Assembly: GCA_035283065.1 (NCBI GenBank)
Contig: DATEUP010000275.1
Location: 1 to 58,852, forward strand
Direction of reading: 5' to 3'
Origin: Thermoplasmatota archaeon
GTDB lineage: Archaea; Thermoplasmatota; DTKX01; DATEUP01
Length of the DNA: 58,852 nucleotides
The notes beneath the pieces are model-generated. The model saw only the letters and a list, made by a program, of their open reading frames with translations, was not told where the DNA came from and ran no database searches. The translations under genes and the position numbers were made by a program. This document shows, piece by piece, positions 4,371-35,165 of this stretch. Numbering within the stretch: position 1 is the stretch's first letter; the number at the start of each line of letters is the position of its first letter.

Positions 4371-4386
4371 GGTACGCATTCGTACC
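4371..4386. promoter_or_regulatory. operator-like palindrome GGTACGCATTCGTACC
   Basis: Perfect GGTACG-N4-CGTACC. Lies 83 nt upstream of the first rightward gene. Confidence 0.6.
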
Positions 4387-4468
4387 TTGCATTCTGGCAC
4401 GACGCTTGCTAAGGGTCAAGTCGGTGTTTGCGAACGAAACAACGACCCCCAACGAAGGGAGGACGGCT

Positions 4469-4663
4469 ATGGAACGGAAGAAACCGCGTCTCAAGCTCGT
4501 GGGCAAGGACGGCAACGCCTTCATGATCCTCGGCCTCGCGTTCCGCGCCCTGAAGGCTGCGGGATACACGCCCGAGGAGATCGCCAAGTTCAAGGCGCAA
4601 GCCACTGCTTCGGACTACGACCACCTGCTGCGCACGACGATGGAGTGGTTCGATGTCCGGTAA
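4469..4663 (+). CDS. hypothetical small protein (64 aa)
   Basis: GGGAGG SD upstream of ATG 4469. Sequence MERKKPRLKLVGKDGNAFMILGLAFRALKAAGYTPEEI. Confidence 0.7.
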   Translation: MERKKPRLKLVGKDGNAFMILGLAFRALKAAGYTPEEIAKFKAQATASDYDHLLRTTMEWFDVR

Positions 4664-4943
4664 CACCCACCCCAAGATCATCGACGCCGGGGCCCTCAAC
4701 GGCGCCCCGATATCCAAGACGACGACCCTCGATAGCCGGGCCAAGAACGGCCGGGAGTTCTTCGTGATCCACGCGACCGCCGGGTACGAGGCGGCCGGCG
4801 CGATGCTCCGCCGGACGGACGGCTACTTCGGCTGCGTCTTCTACCAGCAGGGCGCCCGCAACGGTCGGCTGACCAAGACCGAGGCCGAGGCGCGCGCGTT
4901 GTTCCAGATGTGGACCGCCCCCGAGGAGGTGGCCCGTGGTTAA
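4653..4943 (+). CDS. hypothetical protein (96 aa)
   Basis: ATG overlaps the upstream gene by 11 nt. Part of the same-strand chain. Confidence 0.55.
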   Translation: MSGNTHPKIIDAGALNGAPISKTTTLDSRAKNGREFFVIHATAGYEAAGAMLRRTDGYFGCVFYQQGARNGRLTKTEAEARALFQMWTAPEEVARG

Positions 4944-5175
4944 CACCTTCACGTTCCTCCAGTCCGCCGACCCCGAACTCCTGCGCGCGCAACGCCGCGG
5001 CCTGCGCGAACTGCGGGTGCTGATCAAGTGCTACCTGTACGACATGCTCTCGGAGGACGCCCGCCCTATCCGCGTCGTCAGCGTCCGCCGGGTATTCGGT
5101 TCCGGCCCGATTCGCTTCTCCGTCACGGTGCGCGGCCCCGCCAAGGCGACGCGCCAACTCAAGGAGGTGCTCTGA
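4936..5175 (+). CDS. hypothetical protein (79 aa)
   Basis: GTG start overlaps the upstream stop (GTGGTTAA). Confidence 0.5.
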   Translation: MVNTFTFLQSADPELLRAQRRGLRELRVLIKCYLYDMLSEDARPIRVVSVRRVFGSGPIRFSVTVRGPAKATRQLKEVL

Positions 5176-5459
5176 TGGCCAAAGTTCAGGTGTACGCCTT
5201 CGACAAGGACGGGAAGATGCTCCACTGCGCGCCTCGGGAGATCCCCGCGCGGTTCGGCCCCGGCACCATCCGTCGGTGGGAACGCGAGTGGCGCAAGTGG
5301 GCGCTGAACGAGGTGCCGGCCGACTGCCCGACCGGGATCGCCGTTCGGACCCGCCGCCACGGTTCCTGGTTGGTCGAGTGGCCGGCCAGTCCGGTCTACT
5401 ACGCGGCCAAGGGGCATCCGATGCGCCCGGCCGCGCAGGAGGTGACCGATGCGCGTTGA
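5175..5459 (+). CDS. hypothetical protein (94 aa)
   Basis: AAGGAGG SD. The ATG shares one nt with the upstream TGA. Confidence 0.65.
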   Translation: MAKVQVYAFDKDGKMLHCAPREIPARFGPGTIRRWEREWRKWALNEVPADCPTGIAVRTRRHGSWLVEWPASPVYYAAKGHPMRPAAQEVTDAR

Positions 5460-5712
5460 ACGCCGGTGGAACATCGACCCGGACCCCGACGTCGAGTACC
5501 GCGTCCACTCGGACGGCTACGGGTTCACGACCCGGACGCCCTTCGGCTACACGGCCTATCGGATCGTGGCCCTGCGCCGCGCCTGGTACACGGGCGGGGA
5601 ACTCTACATCGTCAAGGAGCGTCACCAGCGCCACGGCGCGACCCGCCGCTTCTTCACGCCGGTTGCCGTGTGGGAGGACGTGATGGCCGAGGTGTTTGGA
5701 GCGGAGGTGTAG
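5449..5712 (+). CDS. hypothetical protein (87 aa)
   Basis: ATG overlaps the upstream gene by 11 nt. Confidence 0.55.
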   Translation: MRVERRWNIDPDPDVEYRVHSDGYGFTTRTPFGYTAYRIVALRRAWYTGGELYIVKERHQRHGATRRFFTPVAVWEDVMAEVFGAEV

Positions 5713-5713
5713 C

Positions 5714-5926
5714 ATGGGGAACGCGATCAAGTGCAGCGGGTGCGGTTCGGTCGAGGTTCTCTGCCCTGAGTCCCCCTCGCCGGCGCCGCGCTGCCCGGAC
5801 TGCGGGAAGCCCAGGAAGGCACGGTCGCCCATCGGCGTCGGCGCATGCGGACACGTTCGCTGCGACTGCTCCGATGGGGCCTTCTACGGGCGCGAGGAGG
5901 TGTCGGACGCCGACCCCGGTTTGTAG
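5714..5926 (+). CDS. zinc-ribbon protein (70 aa)
   Basis: GGAGGTG SD. Two Cys pairs: CSGCG ... CPDCG. Confidence 0.6.
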   Translation: MGNAIKCSGCGSVEVLCPESPSPAPRCPDCGKPRKARSPIGVGACGHVRCDCSDGAFYGREEVSDADPGL

Positions 5927-5935
5927 GCCGAAGAC

Positions 5936-5964
5936 TTGACAAACGCTGCGTCAGAAGGTACGGT
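5936..5964 (+). promoter_or_regulatory. sigma70-like promoter TTGACA-N17-TACGGT
   Basis: Perfect -35 at 5936-5941. The -10 (5959-5964) is embedded in the operator-like site. Lies 31 nt upstream of ATG 5995. Confidence 0.45.
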
Positions 5965-5972
5965 ATCGTAAC
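5957..5972. promoter_or_regulatory. operator-like site GGTACGGTATCGTAAC (1 mismatch)
   Basis: Matches GGTACG-N4-CGTACC at 15 of 16 defined-plus-spacer positions. Overlaps the -10. Confidence 0.55.
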
Positions 5973-5994
5973 CTGTTGTTTTAGGAGGTACGCC

Positions 5995-7338
5995 ATGAGG
6001 CTCACGCATCTGAAGGTTTCCAACTTCCTCGGCCTCGAGGACTTCGAGCTCGAGGCCGGAAAGGTCGTCCTGGCTCGGGGGCCGAACGCCGCCGGCAAGA
6101 CCTCGATCATCAAGGCCATCAGCGCGGCCTTCGTGGGGGAGACCGACCCGAAGGTCATCCACCACGACGGCGAGACCGCCGAGGTGTTCGTCCAGCTCGA
6201 CAACGGGATGAGCATCCGCCGGGTGATCGGCGCGGGCGGCGCCACCCTGGACGTGCGGGACGCCGACGACGAGAAGGTCGCCAAGCCGCAGACGGTGATC
6301 AAGGCGCTGCTCGGCGCCCTCGCCTTCAACCCCGTCGAGTTCTACGCGCTCTCGGCGCGGGAACGCAAGCAGTACCTCCTGCGGGCGCTCGAGGTCAAGA
6401 TCAAGCGCCAGACGGTGGAGAAGTGGTGCGGGGAGGTTCCCGCCGGCGTCGACCTCGACCGCCACGGCCTCGAGGTCCTCAAGTCGCTCGAGGAGCACTA
6501 CTTCGCCCTCCGGCACGAGATCCACGCGAAGGCCCTGGACCGGGAGGGGGGAGCCAAGGAGATCGCGGCGGAACTGCCCGAGGGGTTCGCCCCCGACGTG
6601 GCCCGCTCCCTCAACGTCCACGACCTGATGGAGGTGGTCAACAGGCACGAGGCCGCCGAGGCGGCGCGCGCCGAGCGCACCGAGGCGGTTGCGGCCGCCC
6701 GCGAGGCCCTCGCGGCCCGCGAAGCCGAGGTGGAGCAACTGGCGATGCGGGTCGCCCGCGCCAAGGAACAGGTCAAGGCCGCGGTCGATGCCGTCGAGAA
6801 GACGAAGGGGGCGGTGGGCGAGGTTCGGGGCCCGGACGCATCGGCGGTCAAGGTCGCCCGCGAGACGCTGGCCGAGTACGACCGCACCAAGAAGGTCCTC
6901 GCCCGCCACGAGGAGATGACCCGTCTGATGGACGACGCGAAGACGGCCCGCGACGAGTGGGCGAAACTGGATGCGCTGGTCAAGTTCCTCCAGACGGAGG
7001 CGCCCAGGGAGATCCTCGAGAAGCTGCCGCCGGTGGCCAAGGGCCTCAAGATCGACGGCGAGAACCTCACCCTCAACGGGACCCCCCTCGACCATCTTTC
7101 CTCGGGCGAGCAATTGAGGTTCGCCGTGGAGATCGCCCGGGCCCTCGCCGGCGACCTCAAGCTCCTCTGCGTCGACGGGATCGAGCGGCTCGACCCGGAG
7201 GCCCGCGAGGCGTTCATGGCGCAGTGCAAGGGGGACGCCTACCAGTACGTCCTCACCGAGGTGGCCGGGGGGAAGATGAAGGTGACCTCGACGAACGGCG
7301 ACGTCAAGAAGGCCAAGCTGGCCGGGAGGAAGGCATGA
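5995..7338 (+). CDS. SMC/SbcC/RecF-like AAA ATPase with coiled-coil insert
   Basis: TAGGAGG SD. Walker A GPNAAGKTS, Ala/Glu/Arg-rich coiled-coil middle, signature LSSGEQLRF, Walker B LLCVDGIERLD. Confidence 0.8.
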   Translation: MRLTHLKVSNFLGLEDFELEAGKVVLARGPNAAGKTSIIKAISAAFVGETDPKVIHHDGETAEVFVQLDNGMSIRRVIGAGGATLDVRDADDEKVAKPQTVIKALLGALAFNPVEFYALSARERKQYLLRALEVKIKRQTVEKWCGEVPAGVDLDRHGLEVLKSLEEHYFALRHEIHAKALDREGGAKEIAAELPEGFAPDVARSLNVHDLMEVVNRHEAAEAARAERTEAVAAAREALAAREAEVEQLAMRVARAKEQVKAAVDAVEKTKGAVGEVRGPDASAVKVARETLAEYDRTKKVLARHEEMTRLMDDAKTARDEWAKLDALVKFLQTEAPREILEKLPPVAKGLKIDGENLTLNGTPLDHLSSGEQLRFAVEIARALAGDLKLLCVDGIERLDPEAREAFMAQCKGDAYQYVLTEVAGGKMKVTSTNGDVKKAKLAGRKA

Positions 7339-11208: not shown

Positions 11209-11217
11209 GAGGACGCC

Positions 11218-13181: not shown

Positions 13182-13280
13182 CAGAGGAACAACACCTCGG
13201 GCTTGGGCATCCCGCGCATCGGAAGGACGAGCGTAGTTTTCCTTGCATGGCCCATGCCGATCCCGAACAATACGACCCGG

Positions 13281-14138
13281 ATGCCGAACGGTCAAGAAGA
13301 CCTCGCGGATCAGTACCGGGACACGCTCCGGCGAATCTACTGGCAGCGTCGCTTGCAAGAAGAGAACCTCCAGCGGATCAAACTCTTCAATCGCATGGCC
13401 GACACGCTCGTAGCCGCCGGCCTCACCGAGCGGGCGACCGAGTTCGTCGAGTCCGCATCATTTCAGAGCGCGGAAGCATCCCGCATGTCGCGGGAGTTGG
13501 GGGGGCTTGAGAGTACGCTTACGAGGATCGAAGAGGATGTGGTGAGGGAGGCCAGAACGGCGGGCCGCGCGGCCGGACTCACCGAAGCGGAGACCGAGGG
13601 CCGGATCGGAATTCTGAGAACTCACATCGGAACCGTGTCGGGTGCGGTCAGGACGGAGGCGGACTCCGCGGGCATGAACGCCACCTTGATGAACCTTGGA
13701 TTCAGAAACCAGGAAGGCTCGGCGATTCAAGAAGACACCCTATCGTCGTCGCTTCGAGCGCAGAGCGCGGATTATCTTTCGGCCAGGGCCCGAGACAGCA
13801 TCCGGGATGCGAGGACCATAGGAAGCGGGTTCTTCGCCGCTATTGTGGAGCGGCGGATCGAAGAAGACGGACAAATCAGTGCCAGCATCTCCGGAGAGTT
13901 CCGGGTGTTGACGAACCGGGTGGAGGAGAATGCAGCCCGGGCATCGAATGCCGCGCCGCTGAGGGCAGCGCTGTCTGGGCCGTTGATCAGAGCGGACGCG
14001 GCGTTCATGCGCGCGGAAGGGTTGGGTAAAGCGATGGACGTGGGGGCGTTCACTTCCGAAATCCGAAGCAGCCTCCGGCGATCGCGGACGGGCCGCGACC
14101 CGGTTGTACGCACGCAGCGAGGGGCCCCCCGGCCGTAG
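13281..14138 (+). CDS. family-A paralog 1 (285 aa) ending ...RTQRGAPRP
   Basis: Starts MPNGQED. An alternative ATG exists at 13254. Helical composition. Confidence 0.7.
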   Translation: MPNGQEDLADQYRDTLRRIYWQRRLQEENLQRIKLFNRMADTLVAAGLTERATEFVESASFQSAEASRMSRELGGLESTLTRIEEDVVREARTAGRAAGLTEAETEGRIGILRTHIGTVSGAVRTEADSAGMNATLMNLGFRNQEGSAIQEDTLSSSLRAQSADYLSARARDSIRDARTIGSGFFAAIVERRIEEDGQISASISGEFRVLTNRVEENAARASNAAPLRAALSGPLIRADAAFMRAEGLGKAMDVGAFTSEIRSSLRRSRTGRDPVVRTQRGAPRP

Positions 14139-14141
14139 GGT

Positions 14142-15002
14142 ATGCCAAACGGCGAACAGGACATCCCGCGCCAGATGGCCGAGACGCTCAAGGCCCTTCA
14201 CGAGATCAAGTCGTCGGCCCTCGAGGCTCAACTCAAGGCGGACATGGCCCGGCGGGTTGAGTTTCAGATGCGCGAGGCCGGACTTGCCGAGGCCGCCGCA
14301 CAGTGGCGCAACATTGAAGCCAACGCCGACCTGCGCCTAGGATTCCTCGGGCAGAACGTCCGCCAGCTCGAAGAGAACCTGACGCGGCTTGAGATCGAGT
14401 TGACCAACGCCACCATCGAAAGGGTGCGGGCCAGAGGCATTGTCCCGGGCGGTGTTGTCGAGGGCGAGCTGGAATCCCTCGTCCAGGAGATGGGCCGGGG
14501 GTTCCGAGAGGCGCGGCAGCAGGTCGAGACGCAGGTTCTGCGGGCGGGTTCGCGTGCCCTCGGCGAGCAAATCGGCATGTTGACGTCGGATTGGTTCGCC
14601 ATGTTCGACATGGCCGCATCAAGGAACCGATCATCGGATGTGGTGGACATCATCGCTGAACGCTACGATGAGATTGCGAGGATCGGACTGCGTGCGGAAC
14701 CCGAAGCGAGCAACCAGGTCGAACAGATCACCTTCGAGCTTGGACAGGCGCGTGCTGGCCGTGAGGCCGACGCCGTTGGGGCGCGGGACGCGCTTCAGAA
14801 TCAGGTGAGGAGCTTCGCTGAAGAGTCGCCGGTGCGATCGGAGTTGGCCGCACCGCTGTCTCGGTTCTTCACGCGGGCGAGGACCGGGCTTCCCGACATC
14901 CCGGGCCTAAGCCGTGAGATCCGGCTCAACATCCGCACCCTTCCCGGCCTTCGGCGAGTGTTTGGTACGGGGCGACTTCAGCGGGGGGCCGCGAGGCCGT
15001 AG
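14142..15002 (+). CDS. family-A paralog 2 (286 aa) ending ...RLQRGAARP
   Basis: Starts MPNGEQD. Lies 3 nt after the previous stop. Confidence 0.75.
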   Translation: MPNGEQDIPRQMAETLKALHEIKSSALEAQLKADMARRVEFQMREAGLAEAAAQWRNIEANADLRLGFLGQNVRQLEENLTRLEIELTNATIERVRARGIVPGGVVEGELESLVQEMGRGFREARQQVETQVLRAGSRALGEQIGMLTSDWFAMFDMAASRNRSSDVVDIIAERYDEIARIGLRAEPEASNQVEQITFELGQARAGREADAVGARDALQNQVRSFAEESPVRSELAAPLSRFFTRARTGLPDIPGLSREIRLNIRTLPGLRRVFGTGRLQRGAARP

Positions 15003-15004
15003 TC

Positions 15005-15844
15005 ATGCCGAACGGACAAAACGTTCCACAGGAGATTGCAGACGCAACCTCTCTTCTTTTCGAGGCGAGGGCTCGAGAAAGAAGCGCGTTACTGAGGAGG
15101 GATCAGGCTCGAGCCGTAGTGCGCGCGATGATGGCAGCCGGCCTGCGGGATCAAGTGCCCGTGTGGCAACGGATCGAGATGGAGGCGAGCGCAACTCTGG
15201 GTATAGCGATGTCCGACAGGGACAATCGCCTCGTGAATCTAACGCGGCTGGAAGGCGAGGCGATACGCGTCGCGAGGCTCAACGCTGAGACACGCGGCGC
15301 CAGTTCGTTGGACATCGATCACCTCTCCAGACTTATGCGCGAGAGCTTTCGGACTTCCCGACAGGTGGTTGAGACTGCCGGAGCGATTTCCGCGTCTCGG
15401 CAGATTACGCTCTCGGGAGCGCAAACTGAGTTCAATGCGGGCGGCATCCTCGCCGACGCGAGGAGCATTGAGGCGGCCAGGGACGTGGCTCAAGTGGCGG
15501 CCGGTGGGGCCGCCGAAACCGCTCGTGCCGGCATCGAGGCATCCGTCCAGGCACCGACACAAATCGAAACCCTGATGGAGATGGGGTTGCGAGTGAGAAC
15601 CGAGCTAATACGGACGGAGGTGCAGGATCGAACATTCGCCCAAACGTCAATCGCTGCAACAGCGCAAGAGGCGCCCGCCAGAGCCTCCATCGGAAACGTC
15701 TTGAGGACCTTCTTCTTCATGGTCACAGAGGGCAAGGCGGACGTTCCTGGCATCGGCAGGCAGATCACGCAGGCGTTGAGAACCCTTCCAGCGTTCCGCC
15801 TTCGCGCAACCAAGCCGCCGCGTGCGGCGCCGCGCGCGCCCTAG
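15005..15844 (+). CDS. family-A paralog 3 (279 aa) ending ...PPRAAPRAP
   Basis: Starts MPNGQNV. Lies 2 nt after the previous stop. Confidence 0.75.
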   Translation: MPNGQNVPQEIADATSLLFEARARERSALLRRDQARAVVRAMMAAGLRDQVPVWQRIEMEASATLGIAMSDRDNRLVNLTRLEGEAIRVARLNAETRGASSLDIDHLSRLMRESFRTSRQVVETAGAISASRQITLSGAQTEFNAGGILADARSIEAARDVAQVAAGGAAETARAGIEASVQAPTQIETLMEMGLRVRTELIRTEVQDRTFAQTSIAATAQEAPARASIGNVLRTFFFMVTEGKADVPGIGRQITQALRTLPAFRLRATKPPRAAPRAP

Positions 15845-20965: not shown

Positions 20966-20981
20966 GGTACGATACCGTTAC
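20966..20981. promoter_or_regulatory. operator-like site GGTACGATACCGTTAC (1 mismatch)
   Basis: Lies in a low-GC gap just upstream of the giant rightward gene. Confidence 0.55.
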
Positions 20982-21042
20982 CCGGCCCCATGTCAACCTT
21001 TCCTTGCACGGGGGCCTCAAAATCGTATACCTTGAACGTCCA

Positions 21043-24000
21043 GTGGTCGACCGCCGCTTCTTCACGGTGCGCCAGTTCGTCCTCGGCGTGATCGAGGATC
21101 CGTTCCCGACGCTCAAGGACAAGGTCCAAACGCCGTGCCTGGAAGTGTCGGTGGTCATCGCCAGGGACGGACGCGAGTTCCTCCGGCTCGAAGCCTGCAA
21201 CCATCCACCGAACACGACCTTTGCCCTCTTCGCCACAGAGAACCCGACGCCGCCGTTCGGGGCGACGGCCCCTGTCGCGCAGTACACGACCGGGTCAGGG
21301 GGCGCCGCGAGCGCCATCCTGCCGGTCCCGCCATTCCTCGCGCTCCCCGCGCCGCCTCCACCGCCCCCGCCGCAACCCCCGCCGCCGCAACCTCCGCAAC
21401 CGCCGCCCCCGCCCGGGCCTCCGGGTCCCCCGGGACAGTCCGGGGCGTCTATGAACCAAATGGTCGTCTGGTTCGCCAACCCCGCCGGCGCGGCGTTCCT
21501 GTTCCCGCTCGCCACCAACGGGCAGGTGGTCACGAAGTCGCCGACGACCCCGTTCGGCGGCATCGCCTTCTTGTCGACCGCGCCCACCGGCGTGGGGACA
21601 GCGCCGCTACAGAGCGGGGACGAGCCCGTGCCCGACGAGGCCCCCGCCCCCGCCGGCCCGGACAAGACGGAAGTGCGGGACGCCATCAATCGCCTGATCA
21701 ACCTCGGGCGGGCCTGGGGCTTCGCCGAGGCGCGGTTCGACGAGGCAACCGCCGGCGTGGCAGAGGCGCGCGGCCTGGTGGCGCGCCAACGTCTCATCAC
21801 CTCCTTGACCGGCCTTTCGTCGGCGGATACCGAGATCCTCGCCGAGGCGCTGCGGATCATCCTCGAACAATCCCGACGAAGCGCTCTGCTTCAGGGGTTG
21901 GGCACGCAGGTCGTCGAGGACGATGACTTCTGGGAGGGCTTCAGAACGGCCCCGCCCGCGCCGGGCATTTTCCGCGTCCCCGCCCTCGAGTTCCTGCTCA
22001 TCACCCCCGACATGGAACGGCAGGCGGTGAACCGCCAGCGCCTTGGCGAGCACCTGGCCGCGGGCGTCGACAAGATCGCCAACGCGGTCTTCCTGGCCAT
22101 TATCGGGGGCCGGATTCAAGAGCTGGTCGGCGGGGTGGTCGTGCTGGTCGAAGCCCCCGCCCAACTGCCTGCCGAGGAAGCCCCCGCCGACCCGGCGAAC
22201 CTGGCATTCTTGATGATCCTCGTGCAGCAGAGCGCCGAGAACGGACGCCGCGACGCCGTCTCGCGTACAAAGGCGGAACTTGATCAGGTCTGGCTCGACC
22301 AGTTCCTAGTCGGCCAGCGGTTCCGCAACGCGCTGGCGTCCCTCGGCGTTTCCGCCGAGATGACCGAGGCGCTGGTCGAGCAGTTCACCGGCGTCTTCGT
22401 CGCCGGCGGGGCGGTCGCAGCCGCCGTCCCGGTGGAGGGCGTGCCTACGGACGAGCAGATCCGGGCGCAGACGATCGCCACCGGACGGTTGCGCGATCGG
22501 ATCGTTGAGACCCGTGAGTCCCTCGAGAAGGCCATCGCCGGTGCCGCCCCGCCCGCAGTGCCGCCGATCCCCGCGTTCCCCGCCGAACTCCAGGTCCCGG
22601 TGTTTGTGACCGGTGTCGACTTTGCGGGCTTCGCCGCGCGGGTTCGGTCCCTCATCTTCCGGATCGTACAACTGGCCTTACGCGCGGCGACGGGCGATGT
22701 CGATCTGGAGGCGGTCCGTCGAGCAACCGGGCAATTGGAGAGCGAGATCGGGGAGTGGGGGGAAATTGTCCTCGACCAGGCACGCCTGCGGGGCGTACCG
22801 GATGAGGATCGGGTCGTCATCGAGACCGCGCTTAACCGGATGACCCAAGGTTCGCGGCGGCTATTGCAGGCCATCACCTCGTTGCTCGAGGAAGCCGTCA
22901 AGAAGGAACCCAACAAGGAGTTGATCGGGGCGCAGTTGGCGATCATCGGCAAACTGGTCGGGATCAACCCCGAGACCAAAGAGATCTCGGGAATCAACGG
23001 CACCATCGAGGCGGGCGTGGCCGAAGTCGCAAAGCGCTTCAACGCGACCAAGGAGGAGGAGGCCCCCTCCACAGGCATCCCTCTCGACGCAGATCCTGAG
23101 ACCCTCAAGGAGAAACGTGCCGCGGAGGAAACCATCAAGAAGGAGGAAGCCGAAACCGGACAGCCGAAACGGTTCGCGGATCTGTGGGTTGAGGTTGCCC
23201 CGGATCTGGCGGCCTGGATCACGCTGATCAGGGATCTCGCGTTAGGCGTGATTCGGAAGTCCGGCGATAAGAAGGAGTTGCTCGCGAACCTCGATAGCGC
23301 CATCCGCCTCGCGGAGCGTCTGGTCGCATCCATCAAGGAGGAGAACTTTGCCTCCGACATCAGACTCGCCCTAACGGTGGATCAGCGCGAGCAGATCCTC
23401 ATTTACCTCAGTGGCATCATCGGCGAGCTTCGCTCCATCCGCAGCACCGCGCAGAAGGGAGGCAAGGAATCGGACATCAGAGAGCATGTGGAATTTGCCG
23501 AGAATCTGATCATTAGGATCACCAATCTGTACGCCCCCTTTGCCGACAGGCTCGGTCTCCGGGGGGCATTCCAGAACATCATTAACCGTATACTGAGAGA
23601 CCGCGAACCGTCCCCGAACGTCCTGCCCCCCATCGTCTTCGAGGTCTCTTTGACGACCCCGGGCACCGACGAGATCGCCATCAATATCGAACGGCTCCGC
23701 TCCGAGGACTCCGACGTGCGGGACCTGGGTTTCAACAACCTGATCGACATGACCCTGACGGCCCCCGACGCCGTGCGCGACGACCTGATCGAAAAGCTAG
23801 GGGCGGCAGCGGATTCTCCCGACCCCGAGCAGGCGGCAAGGGCAACGCGCATCCTCGACATGACCGTCGAGCGCCGGCTGGGCCGGATCGAGGAGTCCGC
23901 AGGCAAGGCGAGCGAGTTGATCCCGAAGCTCGAACAGGAGCCGATGGAGGCCGTCCCCCCGCCCACTCTGGACGAACTCCGAACGCGCAACGCCGCTATC

Positions 24001-25272
24001 AGCAGAGACCTGGACCGGCTCAGAGTATCCCGCAACGAGGAGCACGCGGCGCTTCAGGCGCTGTTGAAGGTCCAACTCAAGCAGGCCGCCCAGATGCTCC
24101 CGGGCGATCAGGCGGCGTTCCTCGTCGAGCGCCTCTTCGAGTTGTTCAACACGGTAGATTTCGCCTTCTTCGTTCTGGTGGGGGACATGGCCACTGCCAA
24201 CGAGGGAAGGGAGAGGATCCTCGCCCTCGACCGCTTCCTGCGGGCCGCCATCAACGGCGAACAGCCCGACTTCCTCGAATTCTTCGGTCAGACCCTCTTC
24301 AACGAACTGCAGGCATGGCACAGGCGCAAGCTCACGCCGGCCGAGACGGACGTGGACGCCAGGCGACCGACGCCCGAAGAAGAAAAGCGCCTGCGCCTTG
24401 AAGCCATCGCATCGGCCGCGCGGGCCGTCGAAGGCGCCGCCACGGTCAAAGACTTCGCCGAACCCGCGAGGGTGGTCCTCGTAGAGATCAATGCCCTGCT
24501 CTCGTCGGGGATCCCCCTATCCCTGCTTGAGTTCGACCACCTGATGCAGTTCCGGCGGGTGGTCGCGTTCAAGGCCGTCAGGTTTGGGATCGACCCGCCG
24601 GCGGGGTCGGTCGAGCCCACGCCAGAGACGGCCGCGTCCGTCAAGGAACGCGAGCAGGAAGGCATCAACGTACAAATCAACGCCGGACTGGCCTTGATCA
24701 ACGCGAGCATGGTCGCCAACACGATCCTCGCCGACTCGGGCAAGATCGCGTCGGTGGTGGTCACAGGCCTCACGGGCGCGCTCGCCGAGTTGGGTTTCGG
24801 GGGCTTCTTCGGCGGCGCCCTCCGCGCCGTCAGGCAAGCCCTCGCCGGCAGCACGCGGGTCGGACTCGATACGCGGGTCTGGATATTCGCCGTTGACGAG
24901 AGCGGCGTCGCCGTCAGCGCCCGATCCGAATCCGCCTTACAAGGTCAGGGGGAAATCTACGCGGGGGTGATGGGGGCCCAGGTCTGCGCCCCGGCCTTCA
25001 TCGCCACGGTCGCCCAACTGTCGGCCATGCTCCAGCGAACCGTCTCGGCCATCAAGGCGGCCGCCCGAGCCGAGGCGGATGCGCTGGTAGCGGCCGGCCT
25101 CGAGGAAACCGAACGCGCTATGGCCCTTTTCGGGGCGCTGCCCGTCTTCCGCTCGTTCGAGCAAGCCTTCGGCATGGCTATCGAGCGGGCTTCGGTGATC
25201 GGGGCATCCATCATCCAGCGCGGTATCTCGCCTGCGGACAGGCCGCCCGCCCGCCGCGCCGCCCGCTCCTAA
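21043..25272 (+). CDS. giant tail-motif protein (~1409 aa) ending ...PPARRAARS
   Basis: 3' part of the 2140-aa ORF. Third-position G+C rises sharply near GTG 21043 and no in-frame ATG occurs before 21451, so the start is uncertain (21004-21088). Layout: beta-like N-domain, PPPPPPPQPPPPQPPQPPPPPGPPGPPG linker, long helical body. Confidence 0.65.
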   Translation: MVDRRFFTVRQFVLGVIEDPFPTLKDKVQTPCLEVSVVIARDGREFLRLEACNHPPNTTFALFATENPTPPFGATAPVAQYTTGSGGAASAILPVPPFLALPAPPPPPPPQPPPPQPPQPPPPPGPPGPPGQSGASMNQMVVWFANPAGAAFLFPLATNGQVVTKSPTTPFGGIAFLSTAPTGVGTAPLQSGDEPVPDEAPAPAGPDKTEVRDAINRLINLGRAWGFAEARFDEATAGVAEARGLVARQRLITSLTGLSSADTEILAEALRIILEQSRRSALLQGLGTQVVEDDDFWEGFRTAPPAPGIFRVPALEFLLITPDMERQAVNRQRLGEHLAAGVDKIANAVFLAIIGGRIQELVGGVVVLVEAPAQLPAEEAPADPANLAFLMILVQQSAENGRRDAVSRTKAELDQVWLDQFLVGQRFRNALASLGVSAEMTEALVEQFTGVFVAGGAVAAAVPVEGVPTDEQIRAQTIATGRLRDRIVETRESLEKAIAGAAPPAVPPIPAFPAELQVPVFVTGVDFAGFAARVRSLIFRIVQLALRAATGDVDLEAVRRATGQLESEIGEWGEIVLDQARLRGVPDEDRVVIETALNRMTQGSRRLLQAITSLLEEAVKKEPNKELIGAQLAIIGKLVGINPETKEISGINGTIEAGVAEVAKRFNATKEEEAPSTGIPLDADPETLKEKRAAEETIKKEEAETGQPKRFADLWVEVAPDLAAWITLIRDLALGVIRKSGDKKELLANLDSAIRLAERLVASIKEENFASDIRLALTVDQREQILIYLSGIIGELRSIRSTAQKGGKESDIREHVEFAENLIIRITNLYAPFADRLGLRGAFQNIINRILRDREPSPNVLPPIVFEVSLTTPGTDEIAINIERLRSEDSDVRDLGFNNLIDMTLTAPDAVRDDLIEKLGAAADSPDPEQAARATRILDMTVERRLGRIEESAGKASELIPKLEQEPMEAVPPPTLDELRTRNAAISRDLDRLRVSRNEEHAALQALLKVQLKQAAQMLPGDQAAFLVERLFELFNTVDFAFFVLVGDMATANEGRERILALDRFLRAAINGEQPDFLEFFGQTLFNELQAWHRRKLTPAETDVDARRPTPEEEKRLRLEAIASAARAVEGAATVKDFAEPARVVLVEINALLSSGIPLSLLEFDHLMQFRRVVAFKAVRFGIDPPAGSVEPTPETAASVKEREQEGINVQINAGLALINASMVANTILADSGKIASVVVTGLTGALAELGFGGFFGGALRAVRQALAGSTRVGLDTRVWIFAVDESGVAVSARSESALQGQGEIYAGVMGAQVCAPAFIATVAQLSAMLQRTVSAIKAAARAEADALVAAGLEETERAMALFGALPVFRSFEQAFGMAIERASVIGASIIQRGISPADRPPARRAARS

Positions 25273-29723: not shown

Positions 29724-29761
29724 GCGTTGAACGAGACGCCGTCTCGTGTATACTCGGGGCC

Positions 29762-32700
29762 GTGGCCCAACCGCTTCCGCCGCTTTCGGCCATCATTCCG
29801 GCCGAGGCGCAGACGCCCGCCCTTGACGTTGCATTCGCCGCCGGTAACGTCTCCCTCGGCCGGTTGATCCGGGAGGACGGCGAGCGGGTCGACGAGGCCA
29901 TCACCACCTCGACGGAACTCTTGCAGGCCGCCCGCCTCGGCATCGAGGCCCTCTTCAACACCGGCCGGCAGGTCACGGTCGACCACATGGCCGGGTTGTG
30001 GTGGGGTCTTCGCCTGTTTGCTCGACTCCTTCAGACAGACCGCAAGGTGCCCGCTTCTGTGCTCGAAACGGCCAACTCGGAGGGTGCCGCAGGCGGCCTC
30101 TTCCTGCGCCGGCTGACAGCGGGACCTGCCGAATTCGCGGGCGCCCCCGTGCGCCTCTTCGAGCGGGTCGCTGCGGCGGATCAAGCCGGCGCTCTCGCCT
30201 TCGTCGACCACCTTGGGACCGTTCTAGCCGGGGAGCCTACCGTCTCGGACGGGGCGGTAGAGATCGCGGCGCTTCCCCCGCAGGACCCGGATGCCCTTGC
30301 CCAACTGATCAAGTCCGACGAGAGGTTCAATTACTTCCAGATCCGCGACGGGGTTGGACGCGCGGCCGACACCAGAGACATCACGGTCGAGCTGGTACGC
30401 AACCTCGACGGAACCTTCGCGCCGTCCTCGAGCGTTCCGCAGTTCATCTTTGTGCGGCTGGGGTTCGCGCGGAACCCCGACTCCCTGGAGGTGATGCGCG
30501 ATCTGCTCTTCGCCTCCCTGGACTCGAAGGCGCGGGAGGTCACCGGCAAGCTCAAGGAGGTGGTGGACCGTATCCGCGCGGCCAAGGACACGCGAGAAGA
30601 CGCGGCCCTCACCAACCTCAAGCGCGACCCCAAGGCCCGCCAGCGGCTGATCATTGCGATCCGCCGCGCCCGGGACGCCCAGGCGATCCCGGCTCTCACC
30701 GCAGCGCTCGAAGACAAGGACCCGCAGGTGAGGGCCGCGGCGGCCGACGCCCTCAAGCGCCTCGACGCCAAGGAAGCCATCCCCGCACTTGAGAAATCGC
30801 TCACGGACAAGGACATGGCCGTTCGCGAGCAGGCGGCGCTCGCGCTGGCCTTCCTCGGCGCCGGCGCCGCGGCCCTGATCAAGGCGTTCAAGGGGTCGAA
30901 GGGGCGGGGAAAGGCAGCGATCATAGAGGCGCAGGGGGTGCTTTTCTTCCAGGCCACCGACGATGAGAAGAAGTCCATCCTCGCCAACATCGAATCGGCC
31001 ACCAAGGACAAGGAACCCGAGGTGCGAATCGGCGCGCTCTTGGCGGCCCGGGCCACCGAGGACCCGACGCTGACCATCGACCTGGCCCGTCGCGCCCTGG
31101 CCGACAAGGACGAGGCGGTGCAAGCGGCGGCCATCGATGTGCTTCGGGATTTGGCGGTTCGCCTGCCGGAGAACACCAAGGAGGTGTCCTCCATCCTCAA
31201 GGGGGCTATCAGTGATCTTGCGAAAAACCCGGTGCTGCAGGAACGGGCGCAAGACGCCGTGGAAGGGTTCAACGACGATCCGGGAGAACGGGTAGGAACC
31301 TCCGTCAACGGCGTCCGAAACGTCGGGGCCTTCGTTCTCGCCTTCGACGTGTCGGGTAGCACCCTATCGGACCCGGACGACGTCGAGCGCGGGAAGACCA
31401 AGGCCGAGGCCGGGTTCAAGCAGATGAAGGACCTGATCAACTCCCTCAAGCCCAACCAGCGATTCAACATCATCCTCGCCTCGACCGTGGCCTTCGACGA
31501 GGGCATCGCCATCTTCAAGTCGCGTAGGCTTTCCGCCCGCGACATCGCCCTGCTTGAGGCAGAGGGACGCCTGGTGCCCGGAACGCTCGTTGCCGGCGAC
31601 CTGGTCCCCGAGTCGGTTCTCGCCACCGACCAGAACAAGGCCGCCGCCATCGCGTTCCTCGACCGTTCGCTGGCCTTTCTCACAAGCGACGCCAACCGCT
31701 CCTCGCGCGGCTTCTTCAAGGGGCGATACAACCTCTTCGATTCGATCATCCGCGCCTTCGCCGACCGCACGATCAACAAGCTCTGGTTGGGCGGGGACTT
31801 CAGGCCCACGGCGGGATCTTTGACGGACTCCAACACGATCCTCGACGCCATCGAGGGTTTCGTCAAGTACACCCGCGTGCGGATCGACACGGTTGTCTTC
31901 GGCAGCAGCGGGGTCGACCGCAACCTGGCGACGGACCTGGCCACTTCTTCGCGCGGTCGGGTGGTGGAGCGGTCGGCGCAGAAGATGTTTCCCGACGTCC
32001 TGCCCGGCCCGGTCTTCTTCGCCGACCCCGTCGACATGGAGCAGGACATCCTTCAGCAGGGCTTCAGGGTCTACGAGGACACCGGTAGGCTCCGGGCCAG
32101 TTCCGCGATGGCCGAGCGGATGGAGCGGTCGGCCGACTCGATTGCGGCGACCGCCTCGGTCACAGAGGGCGTTCGCTTCAAGAGCAACCTTCAACTACAA
32201 GCCGCTCAGCTCCGGGCAACGGCCGCAGAACTGCGGGTGGTTGCGGATCGTGAACTCGTGAGGGCGTCCGATTCGTCGGTTCGCCTGTCTGATATCGGGG
32301 AAGACGTGCTTCGCCGGTTGAGGGATCGAGGCGCATCGGAGGAGGCGGTCAAGTCGGTAGAGGAAGCCCTCACAAGTTATCGCCTCATCCTAAGACGCGA
32401 GGGCGAACTCGTCGGCAATGCGCGCCAGATAGAAGCGTTCTCCTTCGCTCGATTTGACTTTACGCTTTTCCCCCAGATGTCCGGGCGCATCGAAGGGTCT
32501 CGCAGGCGGGTCGAGGAATCCTCTTCGCGCATTGCGTTGATCATCACGGCGGCCGAGCAGTCGATCCAGACGGAAAACTCCGGCCTGCTCCAAAGCCAAC
32601 TTGCCGCCATACGGATGGCATCCTCCGAGAGCAGTCAAAGGGCGATGGTGATGTCCCAGGATGAGGGCACGGCATTTGCGCGGTTCGCCGTACGCCTCGA

Positions 32701-32857
32701 TGAGAAGATCGCTTCGACGAGATCGTTGTGGGACATCCTCGCTCGCCCCGCCCGCCCCGGCATCGAAGAGGTGACCGAGCAGGTAGGCCGCGCCCTTCGT
32801 CAGGTGAGGCCGAGAGACGGCTTCCCGTTGAGAAGAGCCGCCCCACGTGCCCCATGA
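29762..32857 (+). CDS. tail-motif protein (1031 aa) with HEAT repeats and a vWA-like domain, ending ...LRRAAPRAP
   Basis: HEAT_PBS-like repeats: AIPALTAALEDKDPQVRAAAADALKRL and AIPALEKSLTDKDMAVREQAALAL. MIDAS-like FVLAFDVSGS. Confidence 0.75.
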   Translation: MAQPLPPLSAIIPAEAQTPALDVAFAAGNVSLGRLIREDGERVDEAITTSTELLQAARLGIEALFNTGRQVTVDHMAGLWWGLRLFARLLQTDRKVPASVLETANSEGAAGGLFLRRLTAGPAEFAGAPVRLFERVAAADQAGALAFVDHLGTVLAGEPTVSDGAVEIAALPPQDPDALAQLIKSDERFNYFQIRDGVGRAADTRDITVELVRNLDGTFAPSSSVPQFIFVRLGFARNPDSLEVMRDLLFASLDSKAREVTGKLKEVVDRIRAAKDTREDAALTNLKRDPKARQRLIIAIRRARDAQAIPALTAALEDKDPQVRAAAADALKRLDAKEAIPALEKSLTDKDMAVREQAALALAFLGAGAAALIKAFKGSKGRGKAAIIEAQGVLFFQATDDEKKSILANIESATKDKEPEVRIGALLAARATEDPTLTIDLARRALADKDEAVQAAAIDVLRDLAVRLPENTKEVSSILKGAISDLAKNPVLQERAQDAVEGFNDDPGERVGTSVNGVRNVGAFVLAFDVSGSTLSDPDDVERGKTKAEAGFKQMKDLINSLKPNQRFNIILASTVAFDEGIAIFKSRRLSARDIALLEAEGRLVPGTLVAGDLVPESVLATDQNKAAAIAFLDRSLAFLTSDANRSSRGFFKGRYNLFDSIIRAFADRTINKLWLGGDFRPTAGSLTDSNTILDAIEGFVKYTRVRIDTVVFGSSGVDRNLATDLATSSRGRVVERSAQKMFPDVLPGPVFFADPVDMEQDILQQGFRVYEDTGRLRASSAMAERMERSADSIAATASVTEGVRFKSNLQLQAAQLRATAAELRVVADRELVRASDSSVRLSDIGEDVLRRLRDRGASEEAVKSVEEALTSYRLILRREGELVGNARQIEAFSFARFDFTLFPQMSGRIEGSRRRVEESSSRIALIITAAEQSIQTENSGLLQSQLAAIRMASSESSQRAMVMSQDEGTAFARFAVRLDEKIASTRSLWDILARPARPGIEEVTEQVGRALRQVRPRDGFPLRRAAPRAP

Positions 32858-32896: not shown

Positions 32897-33226
32897 ATGA
32901 ACTTCATCGGTGTACGCAACGAGGTCATCTTCTACTGCATGGTGTGGGAGAGCCGCGCCGAGCCGACGACCGGCTCGTTCGTGGAAATCCTGCGGGAGCA
33001 GTTCGCCCGCATCGCGCAGGAAGCGAAGATGGCGGTCGCCGAGGTCATCCAGTTCTGCCCGCCGAAGCTGCGCGACATCCTCCTCGGGCCTCCCGTGCCC
33101 CCGGTGACCCCGCCGGTCTCCCCGGTCTTCGCCGAGATCATCGTGATCGGCGAGCCCGAGGAACCGCCGATGTTCCCCGAGCGGGCACCGAACCCGGCCG
33201 GCCCGGGCCCCGTGACCCCGACCTAG
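32897..33226 (+). CDS. small protein (109 aa) ending ...RAPNPAGPGPVTPT
   Basis: AAGGTGAGG SD. Pro-rich C-terminal half. Confidence 0.6.
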   Translation: MNFIGVRNEVIFYCMVWESRAEPTTGSFVEILREQFARIAQEAKMAVAEVIQFCPPKLRDILLGPPVPPVTPPVSPVFAEIIVIGEPEEPPMFPERAPNPAGPGPVTPT

Positions 33227-33373
33227 TTCGGGGCCACGCGCGCGCGCACGGGTAGGGGCAGAGCGGAGGTCCTTTTCCCTCTCCATGGGAGGGGGGCCCC
33301 CCCCTACCCCCCCTGTCCGGGCATCTGATTTACGTCGGCCCTTCTATAAAGAGTCGGGTGCAACTTCACCGAT

Positions 33374-33411
33374 GATGCAGGTAGCATTCTCCTTGCATCG
33401 GATGCAGGTAG
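33374..33411. promoter_or_regulatory. GATGCA(GGTAG) repeat array upstream of the RHH gene
   Basis: GATGCAGGTAG at 33374 and 33401 (direct repeat). TGCATC at 33394 (inverted). Confidence 0.5.
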
Positions 33412-33429
33412 ACGTACACTGGCATCATC

Positions 33430-33648
33430 GTGGCACGCAGCCAGGACGACTACTTCGACCAGAAAATTCCCCTCAACGTGCGCGTCGACCGCAAGATCCA
33501 CGGCCAGATCAGGCAGGTCGCCACGCGCGAGGGGCGTTCCACGTCGGACGTGGTTCGGGAGGCCCTCGCCCGCTTCTTGATGAACTGGAACCACGCCGCC
33601 AGGGGCGCGGAGGTCGCCCCCACCGTCACCCCAAGGCAAGCCGGCTGA
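33430..33648 (+). CDS. ribbon-helix-helix (CopG/Arc-like) transcriptional regulator
   Basis: The pattern IPLNVRVDRKIHGQIRQVATREGRSTSDVVREALARFL follows the RHH layout. Confidence 0.7.
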   Translation: MARSQDDYFDQKIPLNVRVDRKIHGQIRQVATREGRSTSDVVREALARFLMNWNHAARGAEVAPTVTPRQAG

Positions 33649-33986
33649 TGCTTCCCTGCCCGAAGTGCTCGAGCGACGAACGGGTAGAGGTTGTCGGCCA
33701 AGGGCCGCAGCAGGTGGAGATCCGGGCGATGGACGAGAGGGGGAACCCCACCGAGGTCTTCCGCCACCCGAGGATGATGTACGAGTGCGTCGGCTGCAAC
33801 GTCACCCTCATCGAGAACAGAATCGCCGGGACGCTCGAGCCGGTCTCGGACGAGAAGGGCAAGCCCGTGCCGACCCGCGCCGACGAGGAGGCGCGGCAGG
33901 CCAAGATCATCGCAGACGACCGCAAGCGCATCTACGACCCGCGGGCCAGCGGACGAATGCGCATGACCCCGCGCCGCAGCGTCTAG
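33648..33986 (+). CDS. zinc-ribbon protein (112 aa)
   Basis: The ATG shares one nt with the upstream TGA. Cys pairs CPKC ... CVGC. Confidence 0.6.
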   Translation: MLPCPKCSSDERVEVVGQGPQQVEIRAMDERGNPTEVFRHPRMMYECVGCNVTLIENRIAGTLEPVSDEKGKPVPTRADEEARQAKIIADDRKRIYDPRASGRMRMTPRRSV

Positions 33987-34009
33987 CGCGCGGCTACCCC
34001 AAAAAGGAA

Positions 34010-34031
34010 GCCCCCGGCTTGCGCCGGGGGC
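34010..34031 (-). terminator. rho-independent terminator (9-bp GC stem, TTGC loop; U-tract on minus strand)
   Basis: GCCCCCGGC-TTGC-GCCGGGGGC is preceded by AAAAA on the plus strand. Lies between convergent genes. Confidence 0.7.
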
Positions 34032-34056
34032 CGGCTGTCTCCCAGGTTGGCGTCCG

Positions 34057-34806
34057 TTACGGCGCCGTGTGCTTCAGCGTGACGACCTTGTTCAGGTCGG
34101 GCAGCACGGCGATGTTGACGAACGTGGCCGGCGGCGGCAGCGCGACGGCCGCATCGACCATCTTGGTGATCAGATCGTCGAGTTTGGCGTTCGCGTCCGT
34201 GACGCTGAACCCCTTGTCGACGGCGACCCCAAGCTGGACCAGCAACTGGACGATGTTCGACCGCAACACACTTCGCATCAGAAGCGAGGTGATGTTGGTC
34301 GGGAGGAGGCCATCGATCTGGTAAGAACCGCGGGTGTACTTCACTCCGCGGCGGTCGCCTGTCATGGCCGACGCCGCGTAGGGTCCCGGTCCTCGTTCTC
34401 CCAGAGCGGAGGTGCTGGTCATCTCGAGCGTGAACGCCACGCGCGAGAGCCAGTTGTTCGCCTTCTCGTCGACCTTCCGCTTGAACTCGTCTCCGTCGTT
34501 GGCGAAGACGTTGTCGTGGGCCTGCTTGGCGCCGACTTCCGAAGCCTCCATGTTGAATTCCATGAAGCGCTTGATGAAGTCCGCGCTACGGCCGCGCCGC
34601 GACACGAAAGCGGGGTTGACGAAAGGCCCGAAAGCGATGGCCGCTTCCTTTGCCAGAGCCGTCCAGTTCGCCGTCGCCAAATCCCACCGCTGCTTCATGA
34701 TGCTCGCCGCGTTCTTCAGGTTCTCCGTGAACCGCGTGAAGATTTGCGTCGGCACCACGTTCACCGGCGTGACCGGGAGGGTCGCCTCGAGGATGACCGT
34801 GGGCAT
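34057..34806 (-). CDS. monocistronic 249-aa protein, candidate abundant structural protein
   Basis: Only gene in the window with its own promoter-like region, a GGGAG SD and a canonical terminator. No recognisable family. Confidence 0.7.
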   Translation of the reverse strand: MPTVILEATLPVTPVNVVPTQIFTRFTENLKNAASIMKQRWDLATANWTALAKEAAIAFGPFVNPAFVSRRGRSADFIKRFMEFNMEASEVGAKQAHDNVFANDGDEFKRKVDEKANNWLSRVAFTLEMTSTSALGERGPGPYAASAMTGDRRGVKYTRGSYQIDGLLPTNITSLLMRSVLRSNIVQLLVQLGVAVDKGFSVTDANAKLDDLITKMVDAAVALPPPATFVNIAVLPDLNKVVTLKHTAP

Positions 34807-34839
34807 CCGAGGACTCCCTAAATGGTGACGCTAAACAAA

Positions 34840-34856
34840 GGCTGGACCGTCCAGCC
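34840..34856. promoter_or_regulatory. 17-bp perfect palindrome GGCTGGACCGTCCAGCC
   Basis: Read directly. Lies between ATG 34806 (minus) and ATG 34881 (plus). Confidence 0.5.
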
Positions 34857-34865
34857 TCCGAGGGC

Positions 34866-34872
34866 TATAGTA
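34866..34872. promoter_or_regulatory. overlapping opposite-strand -10 hexamers (TATAGT plus strand, TACTAT minus strand)
   Basis: Plus strand: TGGACC-N17-TATAGT. Minus strand: TTGCAT-N17-TACTAT. Confidence 0.4.
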
Positions 34873-34880
34873 CGCAGGGT

Positions 34881-35165
34881 ATGGACCGCATGCAAGGGTT
34901 TTGGTGTTTTCGCGGCGCAACCGCTTGGCGGCTAAGGCGTTGCTGGTACGCCATCGTACCTCTGGCGTTTTTCGCACTGATGGCCGCCTGCTCCGGTCTC
35001 CAGCTTGAACGAGCCGGCGATGCGGCGGGCACGGCCGCCGAGGTGGCAGGAACCGCCGGGGCCGTTACAGGAAACCCCCTCTTCCTGGGCGCCGCAATCG
35101 CTTTGGGGGCGATCAGCGCGGGCCTGACGGGGGTTGGTCGCCTCATGCGCTCGAGGGGGAAGTAG
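34881..35165 (+). CDS. putative lipoprotein (94 aa)
   Basis: Basic n-region RLRR, hydrophobic core, lipobox-like ALMAAC, C-terminal hydrophobic segment. Confidence 0.5.
   Translation: MDRMQGFWCFRGATAWRLRRCWYAIVPLAFFALMAACSGLQLERAGDAAGTAAEVAGTAGAVTGNPLFLGAAIALGAISAGLTGVGRLMRSRGK
34945..34960. promoter_or_regulatory. operator-like palindrome GGTACGCCATCGTACC
   Basis: Perfect GGTACG-N4-CGTACC. Lies inside the 5' part of the lipoprotein ORF. Confidence 0.55.

Follow-up and report, generated by a model that had tools for sequence, protein, structure and literature searches.

The 58,852-nucleotide contig DATEUP010000275.1, the whole of which was analysed and is here termed the window, carries five copies of a 16-bp palindrome, GGTACG-N4-CGTACC (GGTACGNNNNCGTACC), which probably, if by no means certainly, serve as DNA operators of a single dimeric or otherwise twofold-symmetric regulator that would control a subset of sigma70-type promoters. 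The window spans the whole of a 58.6–58.8 kb scaffold that has been assembled repeatedly from groundwater metagenomes of the Rifle aquifer, and the element that it represents is phage-like, about 59 kb long and novel, with almost no gene to which a function can be assigned. An earlier note, made from the letters of the sequence, had proposed that five such palindromes (here sites A to E, from left to right) form the operator set of one dimeric regulator. The anatomy of the sites, their location at promoters, their registers and their conservation support this proposal; several of the transcription units to which the note had assigned them are revised below. The operator reading rests on half-sites that are constant while the spacers vary, on non-coding, promoter-bearing locations, on three different registers relative to core promoters, and on the cores of two sites, which are conserved in a diverged relative, L017.

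Three perfect copies begin at 4371, 20810 and 34945, exactly as the earlier note had it, where none is expected: no copy appeared in any of 100 shuffled sequences that preserved dinucleotide content. Allowing one mismatch adds the copy at 5957 and gives four copies against an expectation of 0.18, a number reached in none of the 100 shuffles. The shuffle-controlled search with up to two mismatches that the note had recommended returned eight copies against 2.35 expected, and eight were reached in one shuffle of 100. The copy at 20966, which the note had listed beside 5957 as differing at a single position, in fact carries two mismatches (CGTTAC in place of CGTACC) and is the only non-coding member of the two-mismatch class. 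In order to allow for the post hoc choice of motif, every family of perfect 6-N(0–10)-6 palindromes was enumerated: GGTACG-N4 is the only family with three copies that is not composed purely of G and C, and in none of 60 shuffles did any family with at least two A/T bases per half-site reach three copies. A symmetric weight matrix was built from the five sites, which score 21.5–27.9 bits on it. The next match in the window, at 18730, lies in coding sequence, scores 14.1 bits and is not conserved in the relative; all others score below 8. Many equally good copies within genes, an outcome that the earlier note had named as refuting its proposal, are not seen (best coding match 14.1 bits, sites at least 21.5). 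The motif is also absent from 92 unrelated phage and genome loci, among them a phage contig from the same aquifer sample (L043). The site set is discrete and real.

Partial sites that had been reported in addition fared less well. The copy at 20776–20791 has four mismatches and is not conserved in L017, and that at 34869–34884 is a poor match and not credible. Half-sites at 52537–52548 are indeed present; they form a tandem rather than an inverted pair and lie inside a promoter spacer. Isolated GGTACG half-sites at 5987, 4052 and 20747 were considered as operator halves and rejected, for they belong to ribosome-binding-site and start-codon contexts (GGAGGTACGCCATG). An identical 16-nt translation-initiation region, GGAGGTACGCCATGAG, is shared by the SMC-like ATPase gene (5983–5998, plus strand) and a 103-aa early-left gene (4052–4037, minus strand), and a 10-mer of this region, GGTACGCCAT, recurs as the left part of site E.

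The half-sites of the five copies are constant, their centres lie 10 bp apart, and no two of the 4-bp spacers are alike. A stem that stays the same while its loops vary is what marks a DNA site bound by a dimer, not a terminator. Genes were mapped from codon usage, several starts were corrected by reading the sequence, and the map was compared with public gene calls; by both, all five sites fall in non-coding gaps, which make up 11.8% (about 12%) of the genome. Site E lies inside an unannotated open reading frame (ORF) of 94 codons, which has a weak coding score (4.1) and a G+C content at third codon positions (GC3) of 0.73, compared to 0.85–0.9 for real genes. The G+C content of the gaps around the sites is 0.51–0.65 against about 0.66 for the window as a whole, such that the placement in gaps that the earlier note described holds for all five, while the description of these gaps as low in G+C is marginal for the one at 34.9 kb.

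Promoters of the sigma70 type were predicted by a consensus scan, and positions below are given relative to the predicted start. The scan returned 21 matches, and since 13 of them fall within the 11.8% of the window that is intergenic, the predictions carry information. Each of the five sites lies within about 85 bp of a predicted promoter (Table 1). Site A spans about -2 to +14 of a leftward promoter whose start, near 4384, would lie inside the palindrome. Site B spans -14 to +2 of the predicted promoter of the ATPase operon, and the single base that breaks its palindrome (A at 5971) coincides with the predicted start. Together with site D, these sites overlap the -19 to +14 zone of predicted promoters at three different registers; the palindrome would therefore be a separate element laid over the promoters and not a part of the promoter consensus. 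Site C occupies -58 to -43 of the predicted Rad52-operon promoter and ends 7 bp upstream of its -35 box, and site E lies at about +68 to +83, downstream of a rightward promoter.

Table 1. Palindromic sites, predicted promoters and neighbouring genes in the window.
Feature	Position	Strand	Sequence	Remarks
Site A	4371-4386		GGTACGCATTCGTACC	perfect; in 419-bp divergent gap between ATG 4049 (-) and ATG 4469 (+)
Leftward promoter at A	4419-4391	-	TTGACC-N17-CAGAAT	predicted; with TG extension (TGcCAGAAT)
Site B	5957-5972		GGTACGGTATCGTAAC	1 mismatch; in 68-bp gap between Zn-ribbon ORF (5714-5926) and ATPase gene (5995-7338)
Promoter at B	5936-5964	+	TTGACA-N17-TACGGT	predicted; -10 inside site B
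Site C	20810-20825		GGTACGATTCCGTACC	perfect; starts 2 nt past stop codon of tiny ORF
Rad52-operon promoter	20802-20774	-	TTGACC-N17-TAGGCT	predicted
Tiny ORF	20962-20828	-	MPQTLRCEYRKCRQRFPTKIRFCCPYHKAAEHKLRNKERSKAAK	44 aa; between sites C and D
Site D	20966-20981		GGTACGATACCGTTAC	2 mismatches; -19 to -4 of tiny-ORF promoter
Tiny-ORF promoter	20996-20969	-	TTGACA-N16-TATCGT	predicted; best promoter match in window (10/12)
Giant-gene promoter	21004-21031	+	TTGCAC-N16-TATACC	putative; read from sequence, below scan threshold
Promoter upstream of E	34843-34871	+	TGGACC-N17-TATAGT	predicted
Site E	34945-34960		GGTACGCCATCGTACC	perfect; ahead of 35165-44726 operon
Possible weak sixth site	52533-52548	-	GGTACGGGTACGTTTT	3 mismatches; core TACGGGTACGTT, 1 mismatch; status uncertain
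Gene left of site A	start ATG 4049	-		start read from sequence
Gene right of site A	start ATG 4469	+		start read from sequence
Zn-ribbon ORF	5714-5926			precedes site B; weak TIGR02605 match, E = 0.0085
Giant gene	21043-25272, start GTG 21043	+		1409 aa; agrees with public call

The two promoters that the earlier note had read, at site B and ahead of the Rad52 gene, were both recovered by the scan; those of the tiny ORF and at site A had been missed. The note had also read both of its promoters as overlapped by a palindrome at the -10 box. This is true of site B; at the Rad52 promoter the perfect copy lies upstream of the -35 box and only the non-conserved partial site overlaps the spacer and the -10. 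Two assignments of units change. Site D, attributed to the giant gene, overlaps instead the promoter of a 44-aa leaderless ORF that had been overlooked (its centre is about -64.5 from the predicted giant-gene start, and the -35 boxes of the two promoters stand back-to-back). Site E, attributed to a 249-aa gene, lies not on the promoter of that gene but downstream of the rightward promoter that heads the operon at 35–45 kb.

The promoters associated with sites share near-consensus TTGACM -35 boxes, and it is this host-sigma70-type class that we take to be the regulated subset. Promoters without sites read TTGAAC-16/17-TATACT at 29727 and 49969, both leaderless, and TTGATC-18-TATACT at 48540; the recurrent, palindrome-free TTGAAC-N16/17-TATACT form suggests a second promoter class. 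A -10 box that ends about 7 nt before a start codon is seen at 29727–29762 (+), 49969–49934 (-), 20996–20962 (-) and 21004–21043 (+), and the mRNAs from these promoters would consequently be leaderless.

Other features of the site-bearing regions may be recorded here. The control region at site A is flanked by an imperfect inverted repeat of about 65 nt (4130–4196 and 4394–4460), around 80% complementary over 40 nt, of which the right arm holds the leftward promoter. Between the 249-aa gene and the rightward promoter upstream of site E stands a perfect 7-bp hairpin (34840–34856, GGCTGGA-CCG-TCCAGCC) with a flanking A-tract and T-tract; the -10 boxes of both strands overlap there (TATAGT and TACTAT), in what may be a bidirectional promoter and terminator arrangement. 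The possible sixth site lies in the spacer of a leftward promoter, TTGACG-N18-TAGGGT (52554–52525), upstream of a Zn-ribbon gene that starts at 52432. The surrounding 52430–52640 is a divergent promoter region, with TTGACG-18-TAGGGT leftward and TTGACG-16-TAGACT rightward, and a tandem GGTACGGGTACG occupies the leftward spacer. By eye, the product of the leftward gene (ATG 52432, MPRYHCPLC...CPKC) is an FmdB-like zinc ribbon, similar to that of the Zn-ribbon ORF at 5714–5926.

Comparison was sought with relatives of the element. Sixteen public copies were fetched; all are more than 99.9% identical and so give no comparative power. A diverged relative, L017, was found by homology search with the Rad52-like protein: the retrievable 21 kb of a 58,790-nt Logan contig (SRR22388270_12408), which is syntenic with the window and shares 69% amino-acid identity in the Rad52-like protein and 49% in the giant protein. 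The comparison covers the intergenic region from the Rad52 gene to the giant gene, and with it sites C and D, the two of the five sites that lie in the retrievable part. The core of site C (TACGATTCCGTA) is identical at 12 of 12 positions and that of site D (TACGATACCGTTA) at 13 of 13, against 47 of 95 (49%) for the other non-coding columns and 59% for the coding sequence of the tiny ORF. The Rad52 promoter retains both hexamers at six of six positions, as well as its distance to site C, and its spacer, which contains the partial site at 20776–20791, is identical at only 9 of 17. The predicted tiny-ORF promoter keeps its geometry (TTGAAT-N16-TATCGT, 6 nt, ATG), and the giant-gene promoter has a counterpart in TTGAAC-N17-TATAGT. 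The two sites of L017 read GATACG...CGTAAA and CATACG...CGTTAA. Because the outermost bases differ, the shared functional core would be TACG-N4-CGTA, and the outer GG/CC would be specific to the lineage. The centres of C and D are 156 bp apart in the window and 166 bp apart in L017; the difference, about one helical turn, is compatible with binding to the same face and with looping, as judged from two genomes.

Searches elsewhere returned no further relative. There was no match to the element among GenBank phages by near-identity and protein searches, none in IMG/VR to alignments of the Rad52, ATPase and giant proteins or to two DNA patterns, and none in the GTDB genome collection to the giant-protein alignment. 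The DNA pattern of site D gave 12 matches in the GTDB collection, which is below the chance expectation, and none proved related by tblastn. Among the matches listed for the Rad52 alignment in JGI metagenomes there were only distant, non-syntenic Rad52 phages.

The chief competing explanation is that the repeats act in RNA, as GGUACG/CGUACC hairpins that serve as weak terminators or attenuators, or as targets of an RNA-binding or antitermination factor in the manner of lambda nut boxB. We think this unlikely. The placements are suggestive: site B follows the operon at 4469–5926 (31 nt past a stop codon), site C follows the tiny ORF (2 nt past its stop codon), and site E would stand in the leader of the 35–45 kb operon, about 68 nt past the predicted start, an arrangement that resembles lambda PR'-tR'. 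T-rich tails are found at B, C and E and at neither A nor D. Site C satisfies a terminator scan on both strands, with a 6-bp stem and a 4-nt loop followed on the minus strand by TTTTCTCTT; site B is followed by the U-rich UGUUGUUUU; and on the plus strand site E forms an extended hairpin followed by TTTTT (U5 in the transcript). None of 200 shuffles folds as well as site A (-9.8 kcal/mol), L017 keeps the T-rich tract behind site C, and the product of the tiny ORF, rich in Arg and Lys, has a composition of interest for this explanation. The folds of B, C and E (-7.1, -8.7 and -13.1 kcal/mol) show no significant advantage over shuffles (z = -0.8 to -1.4). Any transcript from the predicted promoters at A and B would start inside the palindrome and so could not form the hairpin, and site D, for all the perfect conservation of its 13-nt core, forms none in the window or in L017. 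Nor would independent terminators normally have one stem sequence in common and loops that vary; the clear terminator of the element (34009–34032) has a long GC-rich stem, and no boxA-like flank is common to the sites.

Conservation at site C also bears on the choice. If the site were an intrinsic terminator, pairing should be conserved over sequence, and in L017 it is not: three uncompensated changes break stem pairs 1 and 2 (positions 15 and 16 on the opposite side), the stem shrinks from 6 to 4 bp, and shuffled sequences fold as well as the site does (z = -0.09), although the inner 12 nt are identical. That the outer stem bases were lost and the inner core retained speaks for a DNA operator rather than an RNA hairpin. 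Site C may well have a double role, as the end of the tiny transcript and as a binding site of the regulator.

A second alternative accepts the sites as operators and attributes them to the host. They would then be boxes of a global regulator, SOS/LexA-like or of some other stress response, which the element has put at its early and recombination promoters so that its development is coupled to host physiology. It draws on the controlled genes, which include the Rad52/exonuclease recombination module and the SMC/RecN-like ATPase, on the retention of the core in two diverged relatives that may share a host clade, and on the fact that no HTH-type (helix-turn-helix) regulator was found encoded in the element. 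We regard it as quite unlikely. The outer bases differ systematically (GG in the window, A/T in L017), which looks like co-evolution with a protein encoded by the element, and other phage contigs from the same aquifer sample, such as L043, lack the motif. A literature search for the pattern gave no match; to our knowledge, no described LexA motif reads GTAC-N6-GTAC or TACG-N4-CGTA, and no other global-regulator box matches.

It is very improbable that the palindromes serve some other DNA transaction (as a parS-like centromere, or as recombinase, resolvase, replication or packaging sites) or constitute a repeat without function. Dispersed centromere repeats are known from the plasmid-prophage N15, and the 16-bp palindromes, spread over 30 kb, recall them; sites C and D, furthermore, are direct repeats (13 of 16 positions) that flank a small gene. 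No ParA, ParB, integrase, resolvase or terminase family was detected in the element, however, and the tight coupling to promoter cores (-19 to +14) would not be expected of such sites. A chance repeat is excluded, both by the shuffle statistics and by conservation.

If the palindromes are operators, the best candidate, by position, for the protein that binds them is the 44-aa product of the tiny ORF, the gene of which is bracketed by sites C and D and has its predicted -10 box inside site D. The ORF is gene-like in composition (GC3 of 0.87) and was called by JGI on one contig (L007). Its -10 box ends 7 nt before the A of the ATG at 20962, and its mRNA would thus be leaderless. The protein has the Cys/His spacing C-x4-C-x10-CC-x2-H-x4-H followed by a basic tail. 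Its orthologue in L017, of 47 aa, is 45% identical and keeps all six Cys/His residues along with the tail. There was no match to it in Pfam, NCBIfam, PDB sequences or Foldseek, and no homologue above threshold other than itself among 1.84 billion representative proteins. One may imagine a new, minimal, zinc-finger-like class of phage transcription factor that binds TACG-N4-CGTA as a dimer, represses its own leaderless gene from an operator inside the -10 box, loops to a second operator a gene's length away and switches the early, recombination and virion operons of a phage lineage in which no structural gene can be recognised; we put this forward tentatively, as a doubtful possibility. The 103-aa protein encoded beside site A, RHH-like (ribbon-helix-helix) by eye, was considered as an RHH regulator and rejected, as its AlphaFold model consists of long helices.

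On the operator reading, occupancy of sites A, B and D would place the regulator inside the footprint of RNA polymerase at 4384 (leftward early genes), 5971 (ATPase operon) and 20962 (tiny ORF), and would repress by occlusion. Sites C and D, on either side of the tiny gene, could cooperate by looping across their 156 bp and modulate the Rad52 and giant-gene promoters, while site E, at about +68 in the leader of the 35–45 kb operon, might act as a roadblock or downstream operator. Were the regulator the 44-aa protein, the position of its -10 box inside site D would imply autoregulation; the alternative is a host factor. What has been observed are the sites with their statistics, positions and conservation; that the promoters are active, that a protein binds, in which direction it regulates and which protein it is are inferred.

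Several points weigh against this interpretation. All promoters are predictions from consensus, and site E overlaps none of them. The T-rich tracts after B, C and E lie on the transcribed strand, so these sites could be weak terminators. Conservation was judged in one diverged relative and at two of the five sites, where the 4-bp spacers are also kept, which pure half-site recognition does not predict; the overlapping -10 box accounts for this at site D, and at site C it is unexplained. No homologue, family or structural match points to DNA binding by the tiny protein, and the sites do not form tandem cooperative arrays such as lambda OR1-3. Finally, one RHH protein (33430–33648) is the only recognisable DNA-binding regulator that the element encodes, and no HTH repressor was detected. 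As the earlier note had observed, the RHH protein has a different repeat of its own, ATGCAGGTAG, which occurs twice as a direct repeat just upstream of its gene (33370–33415). This repeat, which differs from the GGTACG palindrome, probably serves the RHH protein as its operator.

The recognisable genes of the element encode a SNF2 helicase, the SMC/RecN-like ATPase, a Rad52-like annealase followed by an exonuclease, several DNA methyltransferases, a Mom-like protein, DUF5131, phrog_1933 and phrog_19112 proteins, glycosyltransferases, a HEAT-repeat protein and the single RHH protein. No capsid, portal, terminase, integrase, resolvase, ParAB or HTH-regulator family was detected among its proteins (for ParA and ParB, by Pfam and PHROG scans of all called ORFs). 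A phage-encoded RNA polymerase, for which the palindromes might have been hairpin promoters, was considered and dropped: no protein has a DxDGD motif and none matches a polymerase family.

Other regularities concern the proteins of the element. At least nine, including all the largest ORFan proteins, share a C-terminal tail R-[RG]-A-A-[PR]-R-x (for example ...PPARRAARS, ...LRRAAPRAP, ...LRRRAARG, ...QRGAARP and ...QRAAPRP), which may be a targeting, packaging or cleavage signal. It is carried by the products of 13203–14138, 14142–15002, 15119–15844, 19846–20754 (-), 21043–25272, 29762–32857, 36509–37222, 37219–41259 and 41256–44726, and is kept in the giant-protein orthologue of L017. The block 13203–15844 comprises three tandem paralogous genes (311, 286 and 241 aa) with this C-terminal tail, and the lengths called for them vary across near-identical public contigs (275/286 and 294/311 aa). 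An N-terminal motif, x-S/D-A-E-E/T-V-F-A/R-R, is common to the products of 35523–35675, 47558–48073 and 50026–50499, and a C-terminal tail PNPAxPGPVTPT to those of 32897–33226 and 35523–35675, which hints at modular signals in putative virion proteins.

If validated, the operator set would provide a first handle on the transcription programme of an element in which almost no gene can be assigned. It would name a group of co-regulated promoters (those of the early-left genes, the SMC-like ATPase operon, the Rad52/exonuclease/methylase operon and the long 35–45 kb operon), place a switch region at 20.75–21.05 kb and, in the 44-aa protein, nominate a candidate regulator that can be tested.

Known systems offer partial parallels. 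Intrinsic terminators and lambda nut boxB are short hairpins that stand in early leaders or behind ORFs, where several of these sites could fold likewise, and T-rich tracts follow three of the sites; they differ in that the set has a constant stem with variable loops, one member that forms no hairpin, and a stem that is not kept up in the relative. A parS system is set aside, as no ParB family was detected. Small zinc-binding phage transcription factors are exemplified by P2 Ogr and P4 Delta, with Ogr sites centred near -55, and switch regulators by the phi29 p4 type. The likeness lies in a very small, Cys-rich candidate factor at a dyad upstream of a -35 box (site C is centred near -50) and in the prospect that a single region bound by a dimer may repress one promoter while it also affects another that diverges from it. 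Neither in sequence nor in structure does the tiny protein resemble these factors, its Cys/His spacing differs, and, unlike theirs, most of the sites overlap core promoters in the manner of repressor sites.

The stoperators of Cluster A mycobacteriophages, bound by L5 gp71-type repressors, are asymmetric, 13–14 bp long, bound by monomers, orientation-dependent and present at some 20–30 per genome (PMC9283540, PMC6550527). They resemble the present set as sites of one regulator scattered over short intergenic gaps in a phage genome of high G+C content, and some are found past a promoter, from where elongation could be blocked, as it might be at site E. Our sites are symmetric and few (five, six at most), and for this reason are not stoperators. 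In the Streptomyces phage phiC31, a repressor of a known HTH family binds conserved 17-bp inverted repeats in intergenic positions, also at its own gene. These too are highly conserved palindromic operators in the gaps of a high-GC phage genome; they are more numerous, and the element has no gene for such an HTH repressor.

The operators OR and OL of lambdoid phages are comparable in being short and twofold-symmetric, with half-sites about one helical turn apart, in overlapping the -10/+1 of early promoters in divergent control regions, and in having one site over the promoter of a small adjacent gene that is possibly autoregulated. Whereas lambdoid operators are tandem triplets, the sites described here are single and stand in five regions over 30 kb, the nearest pair being 156 bp apart; and, unlike lambdoid phages, the element has no HTH repressor, Cro homologue, integrase or evidence of lysogeny. 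Dispersed palindromic operators at phage promoters are already well known in kind, so the set described here is a useful annotation and no surprise, in a genome that is otherwise very novel.

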